Positions 4,068-30,891 are shown, counted from the first letter of the stretch. The stretch is DNA of 32,000 bases from Candidatus Brocadiia bacterium JP1 (GCA_051388875.1 JBMFFR010000001.1:58876-90875), one strand, 5' to 3'. A program made the numbers and translations. The notes: generated from the sequence alone by a model not told the origin.

Positions 4068-4319
4068 TTATGCATATTCAGGTGGCTTTGGTGTGGTAGG
4101 AATTTGTGAACGAGCAATAGTCTTTCCAATATTTTCTTGACGTGCTACGGACTCTACCCAAAACCATAAAATCAGTAGCCCTATTGGCAGCGCAAATCTG
4201 ATTCTTCCAACTTTTTTTACTTGTAAAACCTGTGTTTTTATGATGGCATCTGCAATACTTCGTTTTGCATTTAAAAGGGAAGGTATAGTTGCTAAAGTAT
4301 AAAAAGGTATCAAAAACAT
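4068..4319 (-). pseudogene. Detached C-terminal part of the RDD domain of the upstream J-domain protein (1-nt frame change or sequencing indel)
   Basis: The 83-aa ORF ([34 protein letters not shown]...) supplies the distal part of an RDD-type membrane domain that begins in ORF 4310..5860. On the coding strand the junction reads tta cga tat tta tgt ttt tga. One extra T in the T5 run (A5 at 4312..4316 on the plus strand) would give a continuous ...[15 protein letters not shown]... reading frame. Confidence 0.55.
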
Positions 4320-5860
4320 AAATATCGTAAAAGGGCCCTCTTTTTCGTTAGTGGTGCTTCTGGAAGTGTAAAAACTTTAATACCTATGAATCTTTCCCCA
4401 ATGGTCTGTCGGCCGTGTGATTGCAGATACATGAAGTAGATAAAGTACAGTGGGAAAATTAGAAGATATCCTAGGAATACTAATAAGCTAGGATAAATTA
4501 CAATATATACATACCACAAAAGAGCTTCCATACCGCAGGTCAAAATTGAAAAATCTATAATGTAAGCAAAAACCCTTAACCAAATGCCAGCTCTAGGCGT
4601 GTCACTAGAGGTTGAAGGCCCCCCTTGTTTAGATTTCCCACTCATGCCCGACGCGGGCGGTTCTTGGTTTTGATGCCTCCATTGGTCATCCCAACTCCGC
4701 TCAGTTCTACTGTGAGATTCCTTTTTTGTTTTATCTTGGCAGTGTTGACATAATTTTCCCTCTCCTTCTGTTTCTTTTCCGCAAGATGGGCAAATTCTAG
4801 CGCTACGCCTAGAGTGCTTTCTAAGTTCATTAGCACACAACGCCATTAATTCTGGAAGTATAACCGCATTGTCTTTTGACATTGGTACTCTTGTAAATTC
4901 ACGCTGTCCTTTACCTATTACGTTTTTGTATAATATGATGTAGCCTTCCTGAATATCAGAACCATCGTATTGATTCCATGCAAGAAACTCTGGATCTCTA
5001 AACCATCTTTCCTTCCAAAATCCGGTTTTTGATAGTGTTATTCCCGCAATTGATACAGAGCTTTCAATCTCTGATATTACACGATAAAATTTTTTTACTA
5101 TGATTGGTTCAATGAGAGATTTAGACAAAAAAATCAATTTACCAAACAATTCCGTCTTTTCTTTATTTCCTGCTAGAAAAAGCCCAGAGCTAAAAGTAAC
5201 CAATATCATGTCTGAGTCCGTCTTTATGGAAAAACTGTAGCTCTGGTCTATAAGAATTATTGAAGTTCGTTCTGAATCATAAGAAATGGACACAATGTCT
5301 TTATAAAAAAGTTTTTCCCCATCATATTCAACATACACCTCTGAAAAAGTAATCGCCTTATTTTTAGAAATTTGGAGTGTAATAAAATCTTTTTTATCTG
5401 TGAAAGGATAGTCAAAGACTTCACTACAAGAAGGGCATGTAACTTGCAAGGCCAGTCCTTCAGGGACTTTAAGCTTTTGCTCACAGCTAGGGCAAGTGAT
5501 AATTACTTTCTCCGGCTCTTGTTCAACATCAGGTTCTTCTTCCTCTTCTTCCTCTTCAGTGCTTCGTGTTTCCCAATAATCGTTAGTCTGATATTTACCT
5601 CTTTCTTCCGTCTCTTTCTCTAGCTCCTTTAAGTAGGCATCGTACTGCCTTCGTTTCTCCGGGTCGCTTAAAATTTGGTACGCTTCATTTATCAACTTAA
5701 CTTTTTCCTGAGCCTCTTGCTTCAGTCGGGATAAGTAGGAGGGTATCCTGTCGGGATGGTATTCTTTGGCTAGACGCCGAAACGAAACAGAAATTTCTTG
5801 CTGAGTTGCCGATTCGGCAACTTCTAAGATTTCATAATAATGCGGATTATCAAAACGCAT
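4310..5860 (-). CDS. J-domain protein with poly-Glu linker, two zinc-ribbon motifs, an uncharacterised central domain and a C-terminal RDD-family membrane domain
   Basis: The N-terminal J domain reads YYEILEV...[12 protein letters not shown]...[18 protein letters not shown] and includes the HPD motif. It is followed by an EEEEEEEE tract and then by [10 protein letters not shown]...CPSCSEVF and [19 protein letters not shown]. The C-terminal hydrophobic region ([14 protein letters not shown]...[14 protein letters not shown]) resembles an RDD domain. Confidence 0.75.
5534..5557 (-). repeat. Trinucleotide run (ttc/ctc x8 on the plus strand) encoding the Glu8 tract of the J-domain protein
   Basis: The plus strand reads ttcttcttcctcttcttcctcttc, which contains a duplicated 9-nt unit ttcttcctc. 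It translates as EEEEEEEE on the minus strand. Confidence 0.8.
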
Positions 5861-9544: not shown

Positions 9545-10648
9545 CTATTGGGCTATAAGGGACGCAGTTATGTTATTTGTCTCGTCACTCTCCCCGACAA
9601 CGCTTGTAGAGTCTACAAATCCTATCAGGTATGTACCCTTCTTTTTTGTCCAGACGGATAACGTGGTGGAACTACCAGCAGCAAGCCCACTTATCTCAAA
9701 AATTTTTATGGAAGTATCATCCCCGCTTAATACTGCGTCACTTGAGAGATATACTCTCGCATAAAAAGTGCTTGAAATACCTTTTGTTCCAATATTGCTA
9801 ACTTTTAATTTGCCTTTTGTATTGTTACTGTTTTTCGTTGCCTCAATCCACTCACCAGTGAGGTCAGGAAGGGTGTTACATACCGATGCCCCTGCACAGT
9901 CCTGGTCGTTACAGTCCACAAACCCGTCGCAATCGTTGTCCTTGAAGTCATTGCAGACTTCTATAGCACCGGGATAAATGGCTGCATCGGTATCGTTGCA
10001 ATCAACAGGATTGCCACAGGCAGAGGAAGTGAAATATCCGTCCAAATCGGCATCAACGCAGATGGTTGACCCGTATATGGCCATTAAACCATTAATATCA
10101 TCAGTTGTTAAGGTTCTCCTTTTGGTTGCAGAGCTTAGGGATGGTTGCATAACCGCAGGAGAATTAGAGTGGTCAAGCCCCAGGACGTGCCCTAACTCGT
10201 GTAAGGCAACACTTTCCACATCATACGAGCCGCTGGGGATGTTGTCCCCCGTTGCCCATTGATACCTGTCGTTTATTACAATATCTGCCTCAAGTATGCT
10301 CCCTTTGCTAATCCACCTGGTTGTCGTCGCAAGTGCAAAATCGTCATTACGTTGCTCCCATCTAATTTGGTTAATACCGTTGTAGCTAGGTGCAGCACTA
10401 TCTGAGTTTCCACCACAGGCAAATGTAAATTTTGCGCCGGCGTTATTCCATGTAGTCATTGCATTGAGTACTGCGTTTAGTGCGTCAGCAGTATCGGATG
10501 TGTTATCCCAAACAAGGACGGACTCTCCCATCGGGTCAGGCTGGTAGTTCCAGTCACTCCCGCTGAGGGTGTAAGCCAGTAACGTAGAGCTGCAAAAAAT
10601 TAACGATAAAAAGGGCGCGCAAACCGTTAGAATGGTTTTAGTTTTCAT
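9545..10648 (-). CDS. Secreted matrixin-like zinc metalloprotease with a Cys/Asp-rich repeat region and a C-terminal CARDB-like domain
   Basis: The N-terminus looks like a signal peptide (MKTKTILTVCAPFLSLIFCSSTLLA). The metzincin motif HELGHVLGLDHS is followed by a Met-turn (AVMQP). The Cys/Asp-rich region reads CVDADLDGY...CNDTDAAIYPGAIEVCNDFKDNDCDGFVDCNDQDC. The C-terminus (LKVSNIGTKG...GTYLIGFVDSTSVVGESDETNN) follows the CARDB pattern. Confidence 0.75.
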   Translation of the reverse strand: MKTKTILTVCAPFLSLIFCSSTLLAYTLSGSDWNYQPDPMGESVLVWDNTSDTADALNAVLNAMTTWNNAGAKFTFACGGNSDSAAPSYNGINQIRWEQRNDDFALATTTRWISKGSILEADIVINDRYQWATGDNIPSGSYDVESVALHELGHVLGLDHSNSPAVMQPSLSSATKRRTLTTDDINGLMAIYGSTICVDADLDGYFTSSACGNPVDCNDTDAAIYPGAIEVCNDFKDNDCDGFVDCNDQDCAGASVCNTLPDLTGEWIEATKNSNNTKGKLKVSNIGTKGISSTFYARVYLSSDAVLSGDDTSIKIFEISGLAAGSSTTLSVWTKKKGTYLIGFVDSTSVVGESDETNNITASLIAQ

Positions 10649-10678: not shown

Positions 10679-11173
10679 TTAGTTGCGGATAATTTCTTCA
10701 ATAAAACTGTCTACGGAAACACCTTTTCCCACAACCTTTTCATCGCTTATCGTAAACTTCCCCTGATACATACCCACCACCTTGAAGTAGGATAGAGCGC
10801 TCTTCTTTAGGAATAGGATTACATCTTCCTTCTCATTGAAAGCCACATCATTAGAGCCGACCTGGGTTATGTCACCCACTGTACCTCCGGGGGTTTTTAT
10901 AGTAACGACCTTTCCCTCTACACCTTGGTTCTTTATCCACCTGGACACCTTTACCTCCACGAAGGTCCATATGAAAGTCCTATCCTCGTTCCACTCGCTC
11001 CTAACTGTTAGCACCTTAGCCCTTACTACTGCGTCTGCACTTTGTTTCAATTCTGACAGTTCCGCTTTTCTCATGAGGGCAAAGACTTCTTGTCTGGTAG
11101 GAAGACAGATTGTGGCAATGCCCAAGAAAATACTCACTATCCCAACCCAATTGAAATAAGTACTGACGCCCAT
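10679..11173 (-). CDS. Hypothetical membrane-anchored protein, probably co-transcribed with the metalloprotease
   Basis: I prefer the ATG at 11173 over the track start at 11212 because aaggagg lies 7 nt upstream of it. The N-terminal TM segment reads FNWVGIVSIFLGIATICL, and the rest is beta-rich with no motif I recognise. A 30-nt gap separates it from the downstream protease gene. Confidence 0.6.
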   Translation of the reverse strand: MGVSTYFNWVGIVSIFLGIATICLPTRQEVFALMRKAELSELKQSADAVVRAKVLTVRSEWNEDRTFIWTFVEVKVSRWIKNQGVEGKVVTIKTPGGTVGDITQVGSNDVAFNEKEDVILFLKKSALSYFKVVGMYQGKFTISDEKVVGKGVSVDSFIEEIIRN

Positions 11174-11679
11174 TTTTCTGCCTCCTTTGGAATGCCTGGT
11201 TTTTTCAGCCACATTAGTATCCTAATGTGGTATCTTTTCTAGATTAGTAGGGAGCAATTGAGATACCAACCACTCTCAATATTTTCCCCGTTCCGTTTAT
11301 TAGAAGTTATGTGGTTAAAGGAGTGAGGCTTACGAGATAAGAGAAGATCTATTCAGGTAAGATATGTGGAAAAGAGGATAGTAATCCTTTATGGAATTTT
11401 TCAGATAATTAATGAATCTACACTATGGAATTAATTCAATAGTACTAAGTTCTTATAACCGGCAGGCGAAGGTGGAGGGGGAACGGTGGGTGTATATAGG
11501 CTTTTTATTCCAATAACCCTCAAAATTACATTCATTCATTAATCTTTAGAGCGCCATGGACCATTTTATATGGCATGTAGGAGTAAGACAGGCTTCAGTG
11601 AAAAAAAGTCTTATACTTTTTTAATAAATTTAATGTTATAATTATGTCAATAAAGAAACAAAGTTTTATATAATTTTAA

Positions 11680-11708
11680 TTGACTTCTTTATAATAACTT
11701 CGTAAAAT
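11680..11708 (+). promoter_or_regulatory. Candidate sigma70-type promoter
   Basis: The sequence reads TTGACT (11680..11685), a 17-nt spacer, then TAAAAT (11703..11708). It sits in an AT-rich 570-bp intergenic region, about 75 nt upstream of ORF 11782. Confidence 0.5.
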
Positions 11709-11781
11709 ATTTGTTCTATTCATTATTGAGAAAAACACTAGAGCGTATTGCTTAAGATAAGGTGTTGAAAGGACATGTAAG

Positions 11782-13011
11782 TTGACAGGTGTATCTGCTT
11801 ATATACAAAATAGAGCCTTATATACAAATGCCGTAACTCATATTAAGAGAAGGACGACTTACGCCAATAAGAAGGTGACCAGAGAAGAGATGGGTCGTCT
11901 GGTGGAGAAGGCCTCAGAATGTTTAAGGGATAATGAGACCTACCGCTGGAATGCTGATATAAATGGTGTAATAGTCCAGTTACAAACTAACTCCTTACAT
12001 CAGTATGACTTCTGGGTAGAGAACTGGTTTCCATCTCCCTTTGATGAAACTCCAGATGCGGTAATATATTCGGTGTTGGGCGTCCCTGGAAGGGATTCCG
12101 AGGCCCACTTCTGCAAGGCTACTAAGACCATAGTTTTCTTTAACACAGACTACTACGGACAATGTAAGAGTTGGGCCTTGGGGCTTGCCGACTGTGTACT
12201 GAGAAATAAGGGCATTCATTCCATTCATGGCTCATGTGTGGACATGCAAGGGGTGGGCATCCTAATGATTGCTCCCACTGGAACTGGCAAGAGTACACAT
12301 TCCTATAAACTCCTAGATCTGCCCGAAAGTAATGTACATTCAGATGACTGGGTTTACGTTGATTACGCTGAAGAGAATGGGAAGGTGATGGATGCAAGGG
12401 CTGCCATCTCGGAAAGGAATTTCTACCTGAGAACTGATATAGCAAAAGAAATCCCTCGCCTGAGAGAGTTGTTTAAACGTTGTAAGACAGAGAACGTGAT
12501 AACCCGCAGGGAAGACTGTGAGCGTACATCTTCTATGGACAATGCCAAAATGGGAAAATTTAGATGCGGCTTTGACGAAGGGGATGACTGTTGTCTCTGG
12601 TGTTTCCCTAATAGCCGGGCAATGCTAGACCCCACCTGGGTAGTAGGCAGGGATAGATTTGTTAAGGTAACCAACATAAGGCATGTAATATTTCTCACCA
12701 GGGATGATGCCATGCCGCAGACGAAGAAACTGGATGAGGATGAGACTGTCAAGATTCTTAAGGAAGGGCGGTTTATGGTACTTCCAGGGGCAGGTCCCAG
12801 GTCTGAATGGGGTAAGATGAGAAACGAACCATGGTTTAATCCCTATTTACTGGACCCTGATGACGAGTTTCAGGAAAACTCTTTCAGGAAGCTCTGTCAA
12901 GTCGCGGATTCTTACATGGTAAACACAGCCAAGGGTTCTGTTGAGGAGAATCAGGAGATTATCCGCAGTATCGCCCTTAGCAAGGAGCTTTGTATCCCAC
13001 AACCATGCTAG
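11782..13011 (+). CDS. HPr-kinase / PEP-carboxykinase-like P-loop protein with a Cys-rich insert; function unknown
   Basis: The segment IHGSCVDMQGVGILMIAPTGTGKSTHSYKLL...HSDDWVYV resembles the HprK C-terminal / PEPCK kinase-1a P-loop followed by its acidic motif. A Cys cluster reads CERTSS...FRCGFDEGDDCCLWCF. The start is uncertain, either TTG at 11782 or ATG at 11890 (Met37). Confidence 0.55.
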   Translation: MTGVSAYIQNRALYTNAVTHIKRRTTYANKKVTREEMGRLVEKASECLRDNETYRWNADINGVIVQLQTNSLHQYDFWVENWFPSPFDETPDAVIYSVLGVPGRDSEAHFCKATKTIVFFNTDYYGQCKSWALGLADCVLRNKGIHSIHGSCVDMQGVGILMIAPTGTGKSTHSYKLLDLPESNVHSDDWVYVDYAEENGKVMDARAAISERNFYLRTDIAKEIPRLRELFKRCKTENVITRREDCERTSSMDNAKMGKFRCGFDEGDDCCLWCFPNSRAMLDPTWVVGRDRFVKVTNIRHVIFLTRDDAMPQTKKLDEDETVKILKEGRFMVLPGAGPRSEWGKMRNEPWFNPYLLDPDDEFQENSFRKLCQVADSYMVNTAKGSVEENQEIIRSIALSKELCIPQPC

Positions 13012-28283: not shown

Positions 28284-28429
28284 ACTTTGAGCAAAATTGG
28301 GACACCTTGACGTCTCGTAACTAAATTCTCAGGGACTTATTGTCATTGCTAGTCCGCAATAATCCTTCTTGACTTTACTGAATAATATAAGAAAATCATG
28401 AAATAAAAGGAATTGTCTTGGAGAAATTT

Positions 28430-29311
28430 ATGGATAGAGATAAGCCTATTGTCAATAATGAGTTACCTCTAATTGTACCTCACATTTCAGGTGAAAAATT
28501 AAAACGCACAAGAAGTCTAAAGCGTGCAAATGATTTAAATGGCAAGACCTGGTTACAATACTCTATAAGCGTCTGGAACGATATTAAAAAAACTAGCGAA
28601 GAGATTAAGCTTAAACATCCTGCGATGTTTCCCTCCCCGCTTGCTGAAAGGCTCATACAGGTATATACAACTAACCAACAAAAAAATATCTTAGACCCAT
28701 TTGTCGGTGTGGGATCAACCCTTTTGGCAGCAAAGAACCTTGGTAAACACGGAGTAGGATTTGATATTTCAAAGGAGTATGTTGAAATTGCACAAAATAG
28801 ACTCAACCAGGGACACTTTGCTGAAAAGGGCGAATATAAATTATACTGTGAAGATGCTAGAAACTTGTTTAATCATGTTAGAAGAGGTACGATAGACTTG
28901 TGTATCACCTCCCCTCCATATTGGAATATCCTTTCACAAAAAAGAACCGCAGACTCTAAAGAAATCCGTGATTATGCTGAAAAGGGCAGCAATCTAGGAA
29001 TCATCCAGGATTATAAGGCCTTTTTACAAGAATTGAGGGCTATCTTTGCAAAGGTCAAGACTGTTTTAAAACCATTTGCCCGCTGTTGTGTCATAGTGAT
29101 GGACATAAGAAAAGGGCCAAAATTTTATCCTTTTCATATGGATATAACTCGTTTTATGACAGAAGACTTAGGATTTATCTTAGAGGACATTATAATTTGG
29201 GATAGAAGGTCGGAGTATAACAATCTAAGACCTTTAGGTTATCCTTCAGTTTTTCGTATTAATAAAATACATGAATTTATTCTTATATTCCAAAAGCTAA
29301 AAGAACATTAA
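28430..29311 (+). CDS. DNA methyltransferase of the N4/N6 (PF01555-like) type with an SPPY catalytic motif; motif I precedes motif IV
   Basis: The segment HPAMFPSPLAERLI...ILDPFVGVGSTLLAAKNLGKHGVGFDISKEYVEIAQNRL carries the AdoMet-binding FxGxG region. It is followed about 70 aa later by GTIDLCITSPPYW and AFLQELRAIFAKVKTVLKP. I prefer the ATG at 28430, which has ggaga 5-6 nt upstream, over the track TTG at 28418. Confidence 0.8.
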   Translation: MDRDKPIVNNELPLIVPHISGEKLKRTRSLKRANDLNGKTWLQYSISVWNDIKKTSEEIKLKHPAMFPSPLAERLIQVYTTNQQKNILDPFVGVGSTLLAAKNLGKHGVGFDISKEYVEIAQNRLNQGHFAEKGEYKLYCEDARNLFNHVRRGTIDLCITSPPYWNILSQKRTADSKEIRDYAEKGSNLGIIQDYKAFLQELRAIFAKVKTVLKPFARCCVIVMDIRKGPKFYPFHMDITRFMTEDLGFILEDIIIWDRRSEYNNLRPLGYPSVFRINKIHEFILIFQKLKEH

Positions 29312-29316
29312 AAACT

Positions 29317-30270
29317 ATGCTCATTACAAAAAACCAGGATTATATGGATGAGGATGTAGCATATTTATTAGGGCTTATTCTTGTGAGGGGCACACTTACA
29401 GAAGACAAAGACATAAAAAGATTAGCTATAGAATTTCCTTACAAGTCATTGGAGGCTAAAGGAATAAGCACTTCCTACAACCAAAAATCAGCGTTGCAAT
29501 TATCAGCCAATTCTATTAGAGACCGAATAAATGAGCTGCTAGGCGTTGATTTGAAGGTAGAGAATATGAGTGGTTCAGTAGTCCTTTCCGCAGTCTTTAC
29601 AAAAAATACTCTGGCGTGGAGAAATTTAAAGTTACTTTTAGGAGATAAGAGTAGTTACTCCGAATTTGAACTTAATCCGATTTTCTATGAGTTCGAAATA
29701 AGTATTAAAAAGGAATTGGTTAGGGGTATAGCAGATGCCACAGGATTTATAAGGCCTTCTAACGAATATTATGGCAGACATAGAATTTATCTAGAAATAA
29801 ACAATGCTAATTGGTATTTACCTATTCAAATATGTAAGCTGTTACAAGAGATGGGTGTAGGTGTGCAGTTAATACAATGGGGTCATCCTAACATGAGGGA
29901 GCCCGGCAAGACAGACGTGGATGCCGAAAAGTCTTCGTGGGCAAGGGAACACCAAATTAAGATATTTGCGGAAGAGTTTGAATCGGTAGGTTTTTACTCC
30001 CCACACAAACAAAAGATATTGGAAGAATTTGCTGAGTATAATAAAAATATGTTCAAGAAAAAGCATGAAGAGTGTAACCCTTTAGAAAAAGGGATAAGAG
30101 AGCCTAAGCCTAAACATCCTTGTGAAAACCACCTGAAGATACCTACCGAAATAAGAGGAAGGCATTTTGATGGGTACTGGCAAATATGTCAGGGATTAGG
30201 TTGCATGCAGGGTAAACCAAGTCAGCAGATAAGCTTTGACTTTATGGATGTATTAGAAAGCGATGTATAG
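29317..30270 (+). CDS. Protein with two degenerate LAGLIDADG-like motifs and a C-terminal Cys/His-rich tail; possible DNA-recognition or nuclease subunit
   Basis: Motif 1 is [15 protein letters not shown] (res ~13-27). Motif 2 is [14 protein letters not shown] (res ~132-145), about 120 aa later. Each is followed by a beta-like segment and an hxxhxxLLxxxGh helix ([15 protein letters not shown]; [15 protein letters not shown]), as in double-motif LAGLIDADG folds. The usual catalytic acidic residue before the final Gly is R in motif 1 and T in motif 2. The tail reads HEECNPLEK...HPCENH...WQICQGLGC. The ORF starts 5 nt after the methyltransferase stop. Confidence 0.45.
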
Positions 30271-30757
30271 TAAAGAATCACAGATGTATCCTCCCGTGAG
30301 ATACTGGTTAACCTCTTTATTAAAAGAGAAGCACAAGAAAAAAAAAGTAATTGTAGAAGATACTTCTAAAATTACATTAAGACGATTTATAGAAGATACT
30401 AGCCTCCAGAGGGCCTTTCCCCAATATATTGCTTATGACATAAAACTAGATGTAACAGGCTTTATAATTGATTCTGAAGCTAGTGCAGAGTTAGTATTTG
30501 TTGAGTGCAAGTTGGCCCCACTTACTCTTAGAGATTTGTGTCAGTTAATAGGATATAGCCTCGTTGCACGACCTAGTTATGCTTTTTTATTGTCTCCTGC
30601 TGGGATAAGCGATGCATTAAAATTTCTGATACAAATTCATGGAAGGTATGACATCCTTAGATATAATAAAGATAAGTTTATAAGGATTTCACAATGGGAT
30701 CCATCACGTTGCGAAATAATTCCATCAACTACCCTACCCCCAGGCATGCATGTTTAG
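30263..30757 (+). CDS. Small protein with a PD-(D/E)xK-like nuclease motif
   Basis: The 164-aa ORF contains [27 protein letters not shown], an Asp followed by ExK at the end of a hydrophobic strand. Its ATG at 30263 overlaps the upstream TAG (30268..30270) by 8 nt. An alternative ATG lies at 30284. Confidence 0.5.
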
Positions 30758-30891
30758 CTTTGTTGTATAGGAAACTTTGTTAAGTTGACCTGTTATTCGC
30801 CTGGAAAGCACTCCTCTCTTTTTCTTCATAGACACTATGCTCACAATTACTGTCTTTTTGTTTAAGGTGAATGAACGGACTTTATTCCCCC

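Follow-up and report, generated by a model that had tools for sequence, protein, structure and literature searches.

The DNA considered here is a stretch of 32,000 nucleotides (nt) of one strand from Candidatus Brocadiia bacterium JP1 (GCA_051388875.1, JBMFFR010000001.1:58876-90875), called the window in what follows, and the subject is an island of three genes at positions 28284-30891. A preliminary description, made from the sequence alone, presented this block as an AT-rich island with three plus-strand genes packed for translational coupling, which would encode a DNA methyltransferase (MTase), a double LAGLIDADG-like protein (P2 here) and a small PD-(D/E)XK-like protein (P3), and regarded the whole as a candidate non-canonical restriction-modification (R-M) or defence module. 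The gene layout was reproduced exactly, with a gap of 5 nt between the MTase and P2 genes and an overlap of 8 nt between the P2 stop and the P3 start. Domain matches also confirmed the location between a pabC-like gene and a convergent ABC-transporter gene: upstream lie a pabB-like gene (Chorismate_bind/Anth_synt_I_N) and the pabC-like class IV aminotransferase gene, whereas the downstream neighbour is an ABC_tran ATPase gene on the opposite strand, convergent with the island. The features of the island are the following:

28284..28429, plus strand: 5' intergenic leader of the island, with a putative promoter and a GGAG ribosome-binding site (28420-28423)
28418-29311, plus strand: MTase open reading frame (ORF), 297 amino acids (aa) when read from TTG
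28430..29311, plus strand: MTase of the N4/N6 amino-MTase family, 293 aa
29317..30270, plus strand: P2, double-LAGLIDADG-fold protein, 317 aa, 36.6 kDa, isoelectric point (pI) 6.1
30263..30757, plus strand: P3, minimal PD-(D/E)XK nuclease fold, 164 aa, 19.0 kDa, pI 9.1
30758..30891: 3' intergenic spacer between the island and the ABC-transporter gene

Two starts are available to the MTase gene, and the ATG at 28430 (293 aa) is more likely to be the one used than the TTG at 28418, since a GGAG lies 6 nt before this ATG. Further upstream, a weak sigma-70-like element (TTGACT-16-GAAAAT, 28369-28396) can serve as a lead only, such matches being no commoner in the sequence than in shuffles. No terminator-like hairpin was detected in the 30758..30891 spacer, the edges of the island showed no convincing flanking direct or inverted repeats, att sites or terminators, and no intron or intein was found at the island.

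The AT-rich character noted at the outset was borne out by a proper scan of GC content, which shows a clear compositional break. From 28284 onward the GC content drops to ~35%, and the block as a whole has 36.5% GC vs 45.4% in the remaining window, a value below that of all 514 non-overlapping stretches of the same size taken elsewhere in the 32 kb (minimum 38.3%; z = -3.5). GC at third codon positions (GC3) agrees, with 0.32, 0.36 and 0.28 for the three island genes in order and 0.50-0.56 for the flanking genes. Because both measures deviate and because the closest relatives of the module (74-75% identity, one of them in a Brocadiales metagenome-assembled genome (MAG)) are found at other sites, adjoining a TauE-family gene instead of pabC, the island was, judging from its sequence, clearly acquired horizontally.

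The identification of the first gene as a DNA methyltransferase is secured by matches to PF01555 in Pfam (4.2e-34) and to MTase_II in PADLOC (2.7e-50), and the protein is colinear with the PADLOC model PDLC03363. Its best relative in the PDB is TTHA0409 (2zie, 1.5e-24), to which its two halves align in swapped order. In this regard, motif I (DPFVGVGST, residue 93) stands before motif IV (TSPPYW, residue 164, invariant in 80 of 84 members of the family), an arrangement that departs from the order IV-...-target recognition domain-X-I of the beta class. Since motif I precedes motif IV and the alignment with TTHA0409 is swapped, the enzyme is a circularly permuted relative of the beta class, one that is still caught by PF01555. 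As a rule of thumb, SPPY instead of DPPY in motif IV suggests N4-cytosine methylation, and by this rule the MTase of the window is probably an N4-cytosine enzyme.

P2 matched nothing significant in Pfam, NCBIfam, PADLOC, PHROGs or the PDB sequences in single and profile searches (none at E <= 1 for Pfam and NCBIfam), the only alignment to a LAGLIDADG motif being a sub-threshold one between its N-terminus and I-HjeMI. It is its predicted structure that reveals the fold. An AlphaFold2 (AF2) model built on 84 homologues is confident (predicted local distance difference test (pLDDT) 92.6, predicted template modelling score (pTM) 0.90), and its comparison with the PDB by Foldseek gave 64 matches at E <= 1e-3, of which the top 50 are all LAGLIDADG proteins. 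The best of them is PI-PfuI (3.7e-6), and others include PI-SceI, I-DmoI, I-AniI, the bI3 maturase and WhiA. Both LAGLIDADG-like helices can be made out, with conserved glycines at positions 3 and 9, and their penultimate, metal-binding positions are occupied by non-acidic residues, R24 in the first motif and T142 in the second. Among the 84 homologues the first of these positions is an arginine in 81 and the second is A, G, T, S or C, none of the 84 having an acidic residue at either; in a related family where P2 and P3 are fused (see below) the first is R, K or H, again with no acidic residue in 22 fused homologues. The double-LAGLIDADG layout and the substitution of both catalytic acidic positions, already suspected from the sequence, are thus supported by the model and by the family, and P2 is most likely, on this model, a catalytically dead LAGLIDADG scaffold.

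Several other traits of P2 are conserved or distinctive. Its second domain contains a conserved insert (WGHPNxRxP...WAREHQIK), and its C-terminal region is a tail with little regular secondary structure in the AF2 model, where a cluster of cysteines and histidines (C253, H267, H283, C291, C296) looks like a zinc site. No helix-turn-helix (HTH) model matched the protein. When conservation is set against secondary structure, conserved hydrophobic residues alternate with variable positions along the beta-strands, a pattern compatible with a variable face that would read DNA.

As for P3, the predicted structure (pLDDT 96.5, pTM 0.91) has an alpha-beta-beta-beta-alpha-beta core, and its top Foldseek matches are the PD-(D/E)XK nucleases AF1548, PaqCI, NucS, MspJI, BstEII, EcoT38I, BsaWI and BamHI. 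The residues E5, D63, E81-x-K83 and Q94-xxx-Y98 are invariant or nearly so in the family. In the model, the D...(D/E)xK elements fall on strands 2 and 3, as in the PD-(D/E)XK core, and are followed by the QxxxY motif, which occurs in RecB/Cas4-type members of this superfamily. The description of the third gene as a small PD-(D/E)xK-like protein of 164 aa with a D...ExK motif is therefore upheld by AF2, by Foldseek and by the invariant residues. P3 matched nothing in Pfam, NCBIfam, PADLOC, PHROGs or the PDB sequences in single and profile searches, so that P2 and P3 both stand outside the characterised families of these resources.

The three genes travel together. Relatives of P2 number 245 in a word-indexed protein database, and an exhaustive search yielded 423 representatives of clusters made at 50% identity. 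They are ~300-320 aa long, none of them is annotated, and their sources include Brocadiales, Bathyarchaeia, Caldarchaeum, Asgard archaea, Chloroflexota, Planctomycetota, Poribacteria and Bacteroidota. Gene neighbourhoods were counted in 85 loci found through P2, the denominators being the loci with room for the genes in question. A homologous MTase lies just upstream of P2 in 71 of 72 loci and a P3 homologue just downstream in 78 of 79, the complete MTase-P2-P3 trio being present in 65 of 67 loci from bacteria and archaea, with junctions that are mostly overlapping or a few bases long. Moreover, when the three proteins are compared through their matrices of pairwise identity, the correlations are strong (Mantel r of 0.88 for MTase and P2, 0.90 for P2 and P3, and 0.83 for MTase and P3; p = 0.001), as would be expected of co-evolving genes. 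The trio is, in consequence of these counts and of r values of 0.83-0.90, conserved as a unit in other genomes.

A few loci depart from this pattern. In a Terriglobia MAG (L040:3476-5347) there is no MTase and P2 lies between two copies of P3, the upstream one with the catalytic substitutions E81 to K, K83 to R and Q94 to P; this may be a decaying or solitary system. Two archaeal MAG loci have P3 on the opposite strand, convergent with P2 (L060:4921-5427 and L072:2109-2609), one locus has P3 split by a frameshift (L015:4959-5452), and in another (L074) no P3 was found.

The pair of P2 and P3 is not tied to a single kind of methyltransferase. Three MTase architectures occur in all, and the overlap of 8-10 nt between P2 and P3 is retained while the type of the partner MTase changes. 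One partner, a 700-aa protein in which an EcoRI-like N6-methyladenine MTase is fused to a C5-cytosine MTase, accompanies the pair on a 6.5-kb plasmid of Lactiplantibacillus plantarum and in two phages of the Heliusvirales; another, present in Alkaliflexus imshenetskii and other Bacteroidota, is a 613-aa fusion of a D12/Dam-like MTase with one of the type found in the window (N4/N6). The ORFs downstream in these variant loci are true P3 homologues, with hhalign probabilities of 99.8-99.9%. In A. imshenetskii DSM 15055, moreover, an XRE-type HTH gene that is likely a controller precedes the fused MTase (L043:1481-1795), and an additional ORF of 124 aa, of unknown family, stands between MTase and P2 (L043:3630-4004). 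The exchange of MTase types around a constant nuclease partner is classic behaviour of R-M systems.

The mobility of the module raises a different explanation, namely that it is a selfish homing or mobility cassette, or some other DNA-processing system, in which P2 would target a long insertion site. LAGLIDADG proteins are typically homing enzymes, the island was clearly acquired horizontally, and relatives reside in mobile elements. The insertion sites nevertheless vary from one genome to the next in all those examined, the closest relatives (74-75% identity) being no exception, as do the flanking genes of the trio; there are no flanking repeats, introns or inteins; and the near-obligate linkage to a co-evolving MTase whose type can be swapped is an R-M signature, unexpected for homing. 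Such a cassette is accordingly a highly improbable account of the island. With respect to the neighbourhoods themselves, one relative lies within an integrase/Rep/ParA element together with an Mrr_N protein (L089:10889-11821), and in the phage PV036447 a gene for a GmrSD Type IV enzyme directly follows the module (L087:4202-6295), a clustering like that of defence islands. A scan of viral contigs with the profile of the standalone P2 returned no relatives.

The closest tie between P2 and P3 comes from natural fusions of the two, at least 22 cluster representatives of 539-557 aa in an exhaustive profile search, to which a metagenome scan added 370 relatives of the fused form. In these proteins the P2 body has an extra CxxC...CxxC insert and is followed, after a linker rich in lysine, by a whole P3. 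In the fusion P0215 it is residues 405-554 that match the P3 profile (hhalign, 99.8%), and throughout the fused family the catalytic E/D/ExK/QxxxY residues of the P3 part are invariant. Their genomic context was counted in 80 retrieved loci, with denominators defined as above. An MTase was found in 58 of 59 loci; one of the window type stands in convergent orientation ~500 nt downstream, often with a second, D12-like MTase. The fused gene is immediately followed, in 68 of 69 loci (L091-L170; for example L093:3902-4399 and L095:5635-6141), by a translationally coupled gene for a second protein of P3 fold (~165 aa), in which E5 is replaced by K, E81 by N, K83 by S, E or T, and Q94 by E, while D63 and Y98 are kept. 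This second protein appears to be a conserved pseudo-nuclease partner, and the fact that fused systems carry such a coupled, catalytically replaced protein suggests that P3 folds work in pairs. Together, the natural fusions and the coupled P3-fold partner indicate that P2 and P3 would act as one machine. The idea of a two-protein effector, which the preliminary description had advanced, thereby gains strong independent support, to which the three MTase architectures around the pair also contribute.

The P2 domain is also found in proteins of other designs, at the C-terminus in some of 991-1299 aa (P0226, P0230, P0231, P0234 and P0267) and at the N-terminus in others of 464-467 aa (P0331 and P0341). 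The extra regions of both groups gave no match in Pfam, NCBIfam, PADLOC or the PDB sequences. P2 may, to judge from these architectures, be a general targeting module that is used with other effectors.

The fusions bear directly on a second explanation, in which P3 by itself would be a complete small Type IIP enzyme and P2 an accessory protein, either a WhiA-like controller of the operon or a stabilising chaperone. Restriction enzymes of ~160 aa do exist, as shown by PvuII with 157 aa, and the size of P3 is similar; P2 precedes P3, in the way that controller genes often precede those of restriction enzymes; and WhiA is an example of a degenerate LAGLIDADG protein with a regulatory role (PMC3384342). 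A regulator and its target are not, however, expected to form single polypeptides, and P2 and P3 do so in at least 22 representatives and 370 metagenomic relatives. P2 moreover shows the same degree of conservation as P3, the two co-evolve (r = 0.90), P3 never occurs without P2 in the retrieved loci, all of which were found through P2, and the closest structural neighbours of P3 include cleavage domains devoid of specificity. Since the Alkaliflexus variant is already provided with a classical HTH gene of XRE type, P2 is not needed there as a controller, and this separate gene and the fusions speak strongly against a role of P2 as controller protein. An enzyme made of P3 alone is therefore very unlikely.

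Set beside the folds, motifs, conservation, co-occurrence, co-evolution, fusions and modular MTase exchange observed here, the island is probably a Type II R-M module of a previously uncharacterised family, in which P2 targets and P3 cleaves. It has what is expected of such a system: an MTase with intact motifs for S-adenosylmethionine binding and catalysis, an adjacent nuclease gene with intact catalytic residues, and the inheritance of both as a mobile unit, found in a plasmid, in phages, in an integrative element and between unrelated flanks. We infer the following scheme, which concerns the binding of DNA by P2 and its cleavage by P3 as well as the stoichiometry, the methylated base, the target and a defence phenotype. 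The MTase would protect the DNA of the host, probably by N4-cytosine methylation, and P2 and P3 together would make up the restriction endonuclease. P2, as a dead double-LAGLIDADG scaffold with a zinc-type tail, would find the sequence and dock P3, a small PD-(D/E)XK protein with no recognition domain of its own that would supply the active site, the only one recognisable in the two proteins. P3 is predicted to act as a pair of folds, probably a homodimer in the version of the window. Translational coupling within one operon would ensure that P2 and P3 are made together, and unmethylated incoming DNA carrying the target would be cut. Regarding this target, k-mer under-representation pooled over 84 host loci (657 kb), a pool with no matched control, gave nothing beyond the generic avoidance of palindromes by prokaryotes (GATC, GGCC, CTAG, GGWCC and others).

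A number of observations weigh against this proposal. Activity, methylation and phage resistance are, for all members of the family, predictions from sequences and models. The Foldseek E-values of P3 are marginal (1e-3 to 1e-2), although the probability is 0.97-0.99 for its top matches, and the restriction-enzyme models of PADLOC and NCBIfam recognise neither P2 nor P3, which is to be expected of a new family but lends the proposal no support. A single MTase is encoded in the window where most other architectures have two, a difference that bears on the symmetry of the target. P2 as a whole is an acidic protein (pI 6.1), which sets it apart from typical DNA-binding LAGLIDADG enzymes, and the LAGLIDADG domain of WhiA may not bind DNA at all (PMC3384342); for both reasons the recognition of DNA by the saddle of P2 is not assured. 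Finally, an invariant polar cluster of P2 (E133, D140, R156, H190, N192, R194, E211, H212 and K231) could form another active site, of a non-canonical kind.

This last point leads to a third explanation, in which both subunits are catalytic: P2 would recognise the site and nick one strand by means of the polar cluster, and P3 would cut the other. The precedent is provided by the large-plus-small subunit enzymes BtsI, BsrDI and BspD6I/BstNBI, in which recognition of an asymmetric site and nicking of one strand fall to the large subunit, the other strand is cut by a small PD-(D/E)XK subunit that has no activity alone, and two MTases, separate or fused, protect both strands (PMC4081073, PMC3017599, PMC1950550). 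These heterodimeric Type IIS/IIT enzymes form class III of Chan, Stoddard and Xu (2011). The likeness to the island is considerable, as genes for a large and a small subunit, the latter of PD-(D/E)XK type, adjoin one or more MTase genes in both cases. The ORF of the small BtsI subunit has 495 bp, exactly as that of P3, and the sizes of P2 and P3 (36.6 and 19.0 kDa) mirror those of the BtsI subunits (38 and 18.6 kDa). Relatives of the window system also have a pair of MTase activities, in one protein or in two, which is the usual situation for asymmetric sites, and the fused P2-P3 proteins with their P3 paralogue recall BspD6I, which has a nuclease domain on the large subunit and a homologous small subunit. 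The polar cluster is in line with a P2 that nicks, as numerous acidic, histidine and lysine residues are invariant outside the LAGLIDADG motifs and are kept in the fused family too, and, since the fused systems keep the catalytic residues in only one of their two P3-fold proteins, a second site elsewhere would explain how both strands are cleaved.

The published details of these enzymes, on the other hand, set them apart from P2 and P3. BtsIB has a PD-X13-18-E-X12-QR site for the bottom strand (P57, D58, E72, Q85 and R86), whereas P2 has Q57-K58, N72 and S85-G86 at these positions, so that the fingerprint is absent from it, and the D65/E78/K80 spacing of BtsIA differs from the D63/E81/K83 of P3. 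BsmI (9ezd), a relative of BtsI, is absent from the top structural matches of P2 and is a weak, partial match for P3. The order of the genes differs, and the window system has one MTase where members of the BtsI/BsrDI/BsmI family have two. Identity with BtsI or BsrDI, which the sizes had brought to mind, was rejected on published residue fingerprints, motif content and fold, and the relation to BtsI, BsrDI and BspD6I seems to be one of analogy and not of membership, judged on the reported residues and on the fold. In P2, moreover, the only nuclease fold detected is LAGLIDADG, whose canonical site is abolished in every member, and the conserved cluster matches no known nuclease motif. That both subunits cut is, on balance, unlikely, although less so than the two explanations discussed above. 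For the preferred reading, a Type II module with targeting by P2 and cleavage by P3, these enzymes have a further consequence. Since two-subunit enzymes such as BtsI, BsrDI and BspD6I were already known, the island is better described as a new Type II R-M family than as a non-canonical defence module; in other respects, every part of the initial proposal that could be checked by computation was supported. What is known is Type II R-M with a two-part endonuclease; what would be new is a family whose large subunit is a dead LAGLIDADG protein. In the full-text literature searched (REBASE lay outside the search), no LAGLIDADG-fold component of an R-M or anti-phage system was found, in agreement with the initial remark that the arrangement was not known to have been described.

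Comparisons with other proteins help to delimit P2. Homing endonucleases such as I-DmoI, PI-PfuI, PI-SceI and I-AniI share with it the fold and the pseudo-two-fold architecture, but have an acidic residue at position 8 of both motifs, which is absent in all P2 members. P2 differs from them further in having no Pfam LAGLIDADG match, in lying outside introns and inteins with no conserved target site, and in its extra insert, its Cys/His tail and its obligate linkage to an MTase and a PD-(D/E)XK nuclease. WhiA (DUF199) is closer with respect to catalysis, as it is also a double-LAGLIDADG scaffold that has lost it: the protein of T. maritima has arginine and glycine at the two catalytic positions (PMC3384342), the former like R24 of P2. 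WhiA, however, has a C-terminal HTH and works in transcription with RNA polymerase and WhiB, whereas P2 has a Cys/His tail, is either coupled or fused to a nuclease and belongs to a mobile, MTase-linked unit. The design principle of the natural P2-P3 fusion, inactive LAGLIDADG targeting plus PD-(D/E)XK cleavage, is found in laboratory chimeras where inactive I-SceI was fused to the cleavage domain of FokI or to PvuII (PMC2685105, PMC3258161). Those are constructs directed to an 18-bp site, while the natural family is ancient, diverse and accompanied by cognate MTases. The modular Type IIS/IIM enzymes FokI, PaqCI and MspJI also have a separate PD-(D/E)XK module, with cleavage domains that need pairing, and the nuclease domains of the last two are among the best matches of P3; in contrast with P2 and P3, they recognise DNA with domains of winged-helix, SRA-like or other fold, and a single chain always contains both modules.

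A broader interpretation may be offered tentatively: P2 would be a DNA-targeting module of natural origin, able to evolve and descended from an inactivated meganuclease, which reads longer or asymmetric sites through a variable beta-saddle and recruits separate effectors. These would be P3, in trans or in cis, and, in the other P2-containing proteins, unknown domains of ~170 aa or 700-1000 aa. The HNH, GIY-YIG and PD-(D/E)XK folds are common to restriction enzymes and homing endonucleases. The LAGLIDADG relatives considered in PMC3384342, on the other hand, are regulators and maturases only, with no restriction enzymes among them. The P2-P3 family would bring this scaffold into R-M, as a dead targeting subunit and not as a nuclease. 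If targeting of the meganuclease type were true, it would close the gap left by LAGLIDADG as a homing fold with no restriction-enzyme relatives, and would define a new class of restriction enzymes, possibly rare-cutting, with a ready-made scaffold for the engineering of specificity.

The family is invisible to Pfam, NCBIfam, PADLOC and PHROGs, and the current annotation of defence and R-M systems consequently misses what amounts to 423 cluster representatives. It offers natural versions, both split and fused, of a design that had been built by hand from inactive I-SceI plus FokI or PvuII, and the practical gain could be new specificities, maybe long or asymmetric, along with a small cleavage module dependent on docking. 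Its presence in the cultured A. imshenetskii DSM 15055 and in small Lactiplantibacillus plasmids makes it directly testable.

Elsewhere in the window, a second compositional outlier is formed by a DnaJ + RDD domain protein encoded at 4310-5860 on the minus strand (GC 0.386 and GC3 0.335, compared with ~0.5 in its neighbours). At 10679-13011, two ORFs with no Pfam matches (177 aa on the minus strand and 409 aa on the plus strand) surround a low-GC intergenic region (11213-11781), the 1-kb segment 11001-12000 having 36% GC. Next to them, the minus-strand gene at 9545-10648 combines Matrixin (Peptidase_M10), MopE-type metal-binding and CARDB domains, an unusual architecture for a secreted protease.

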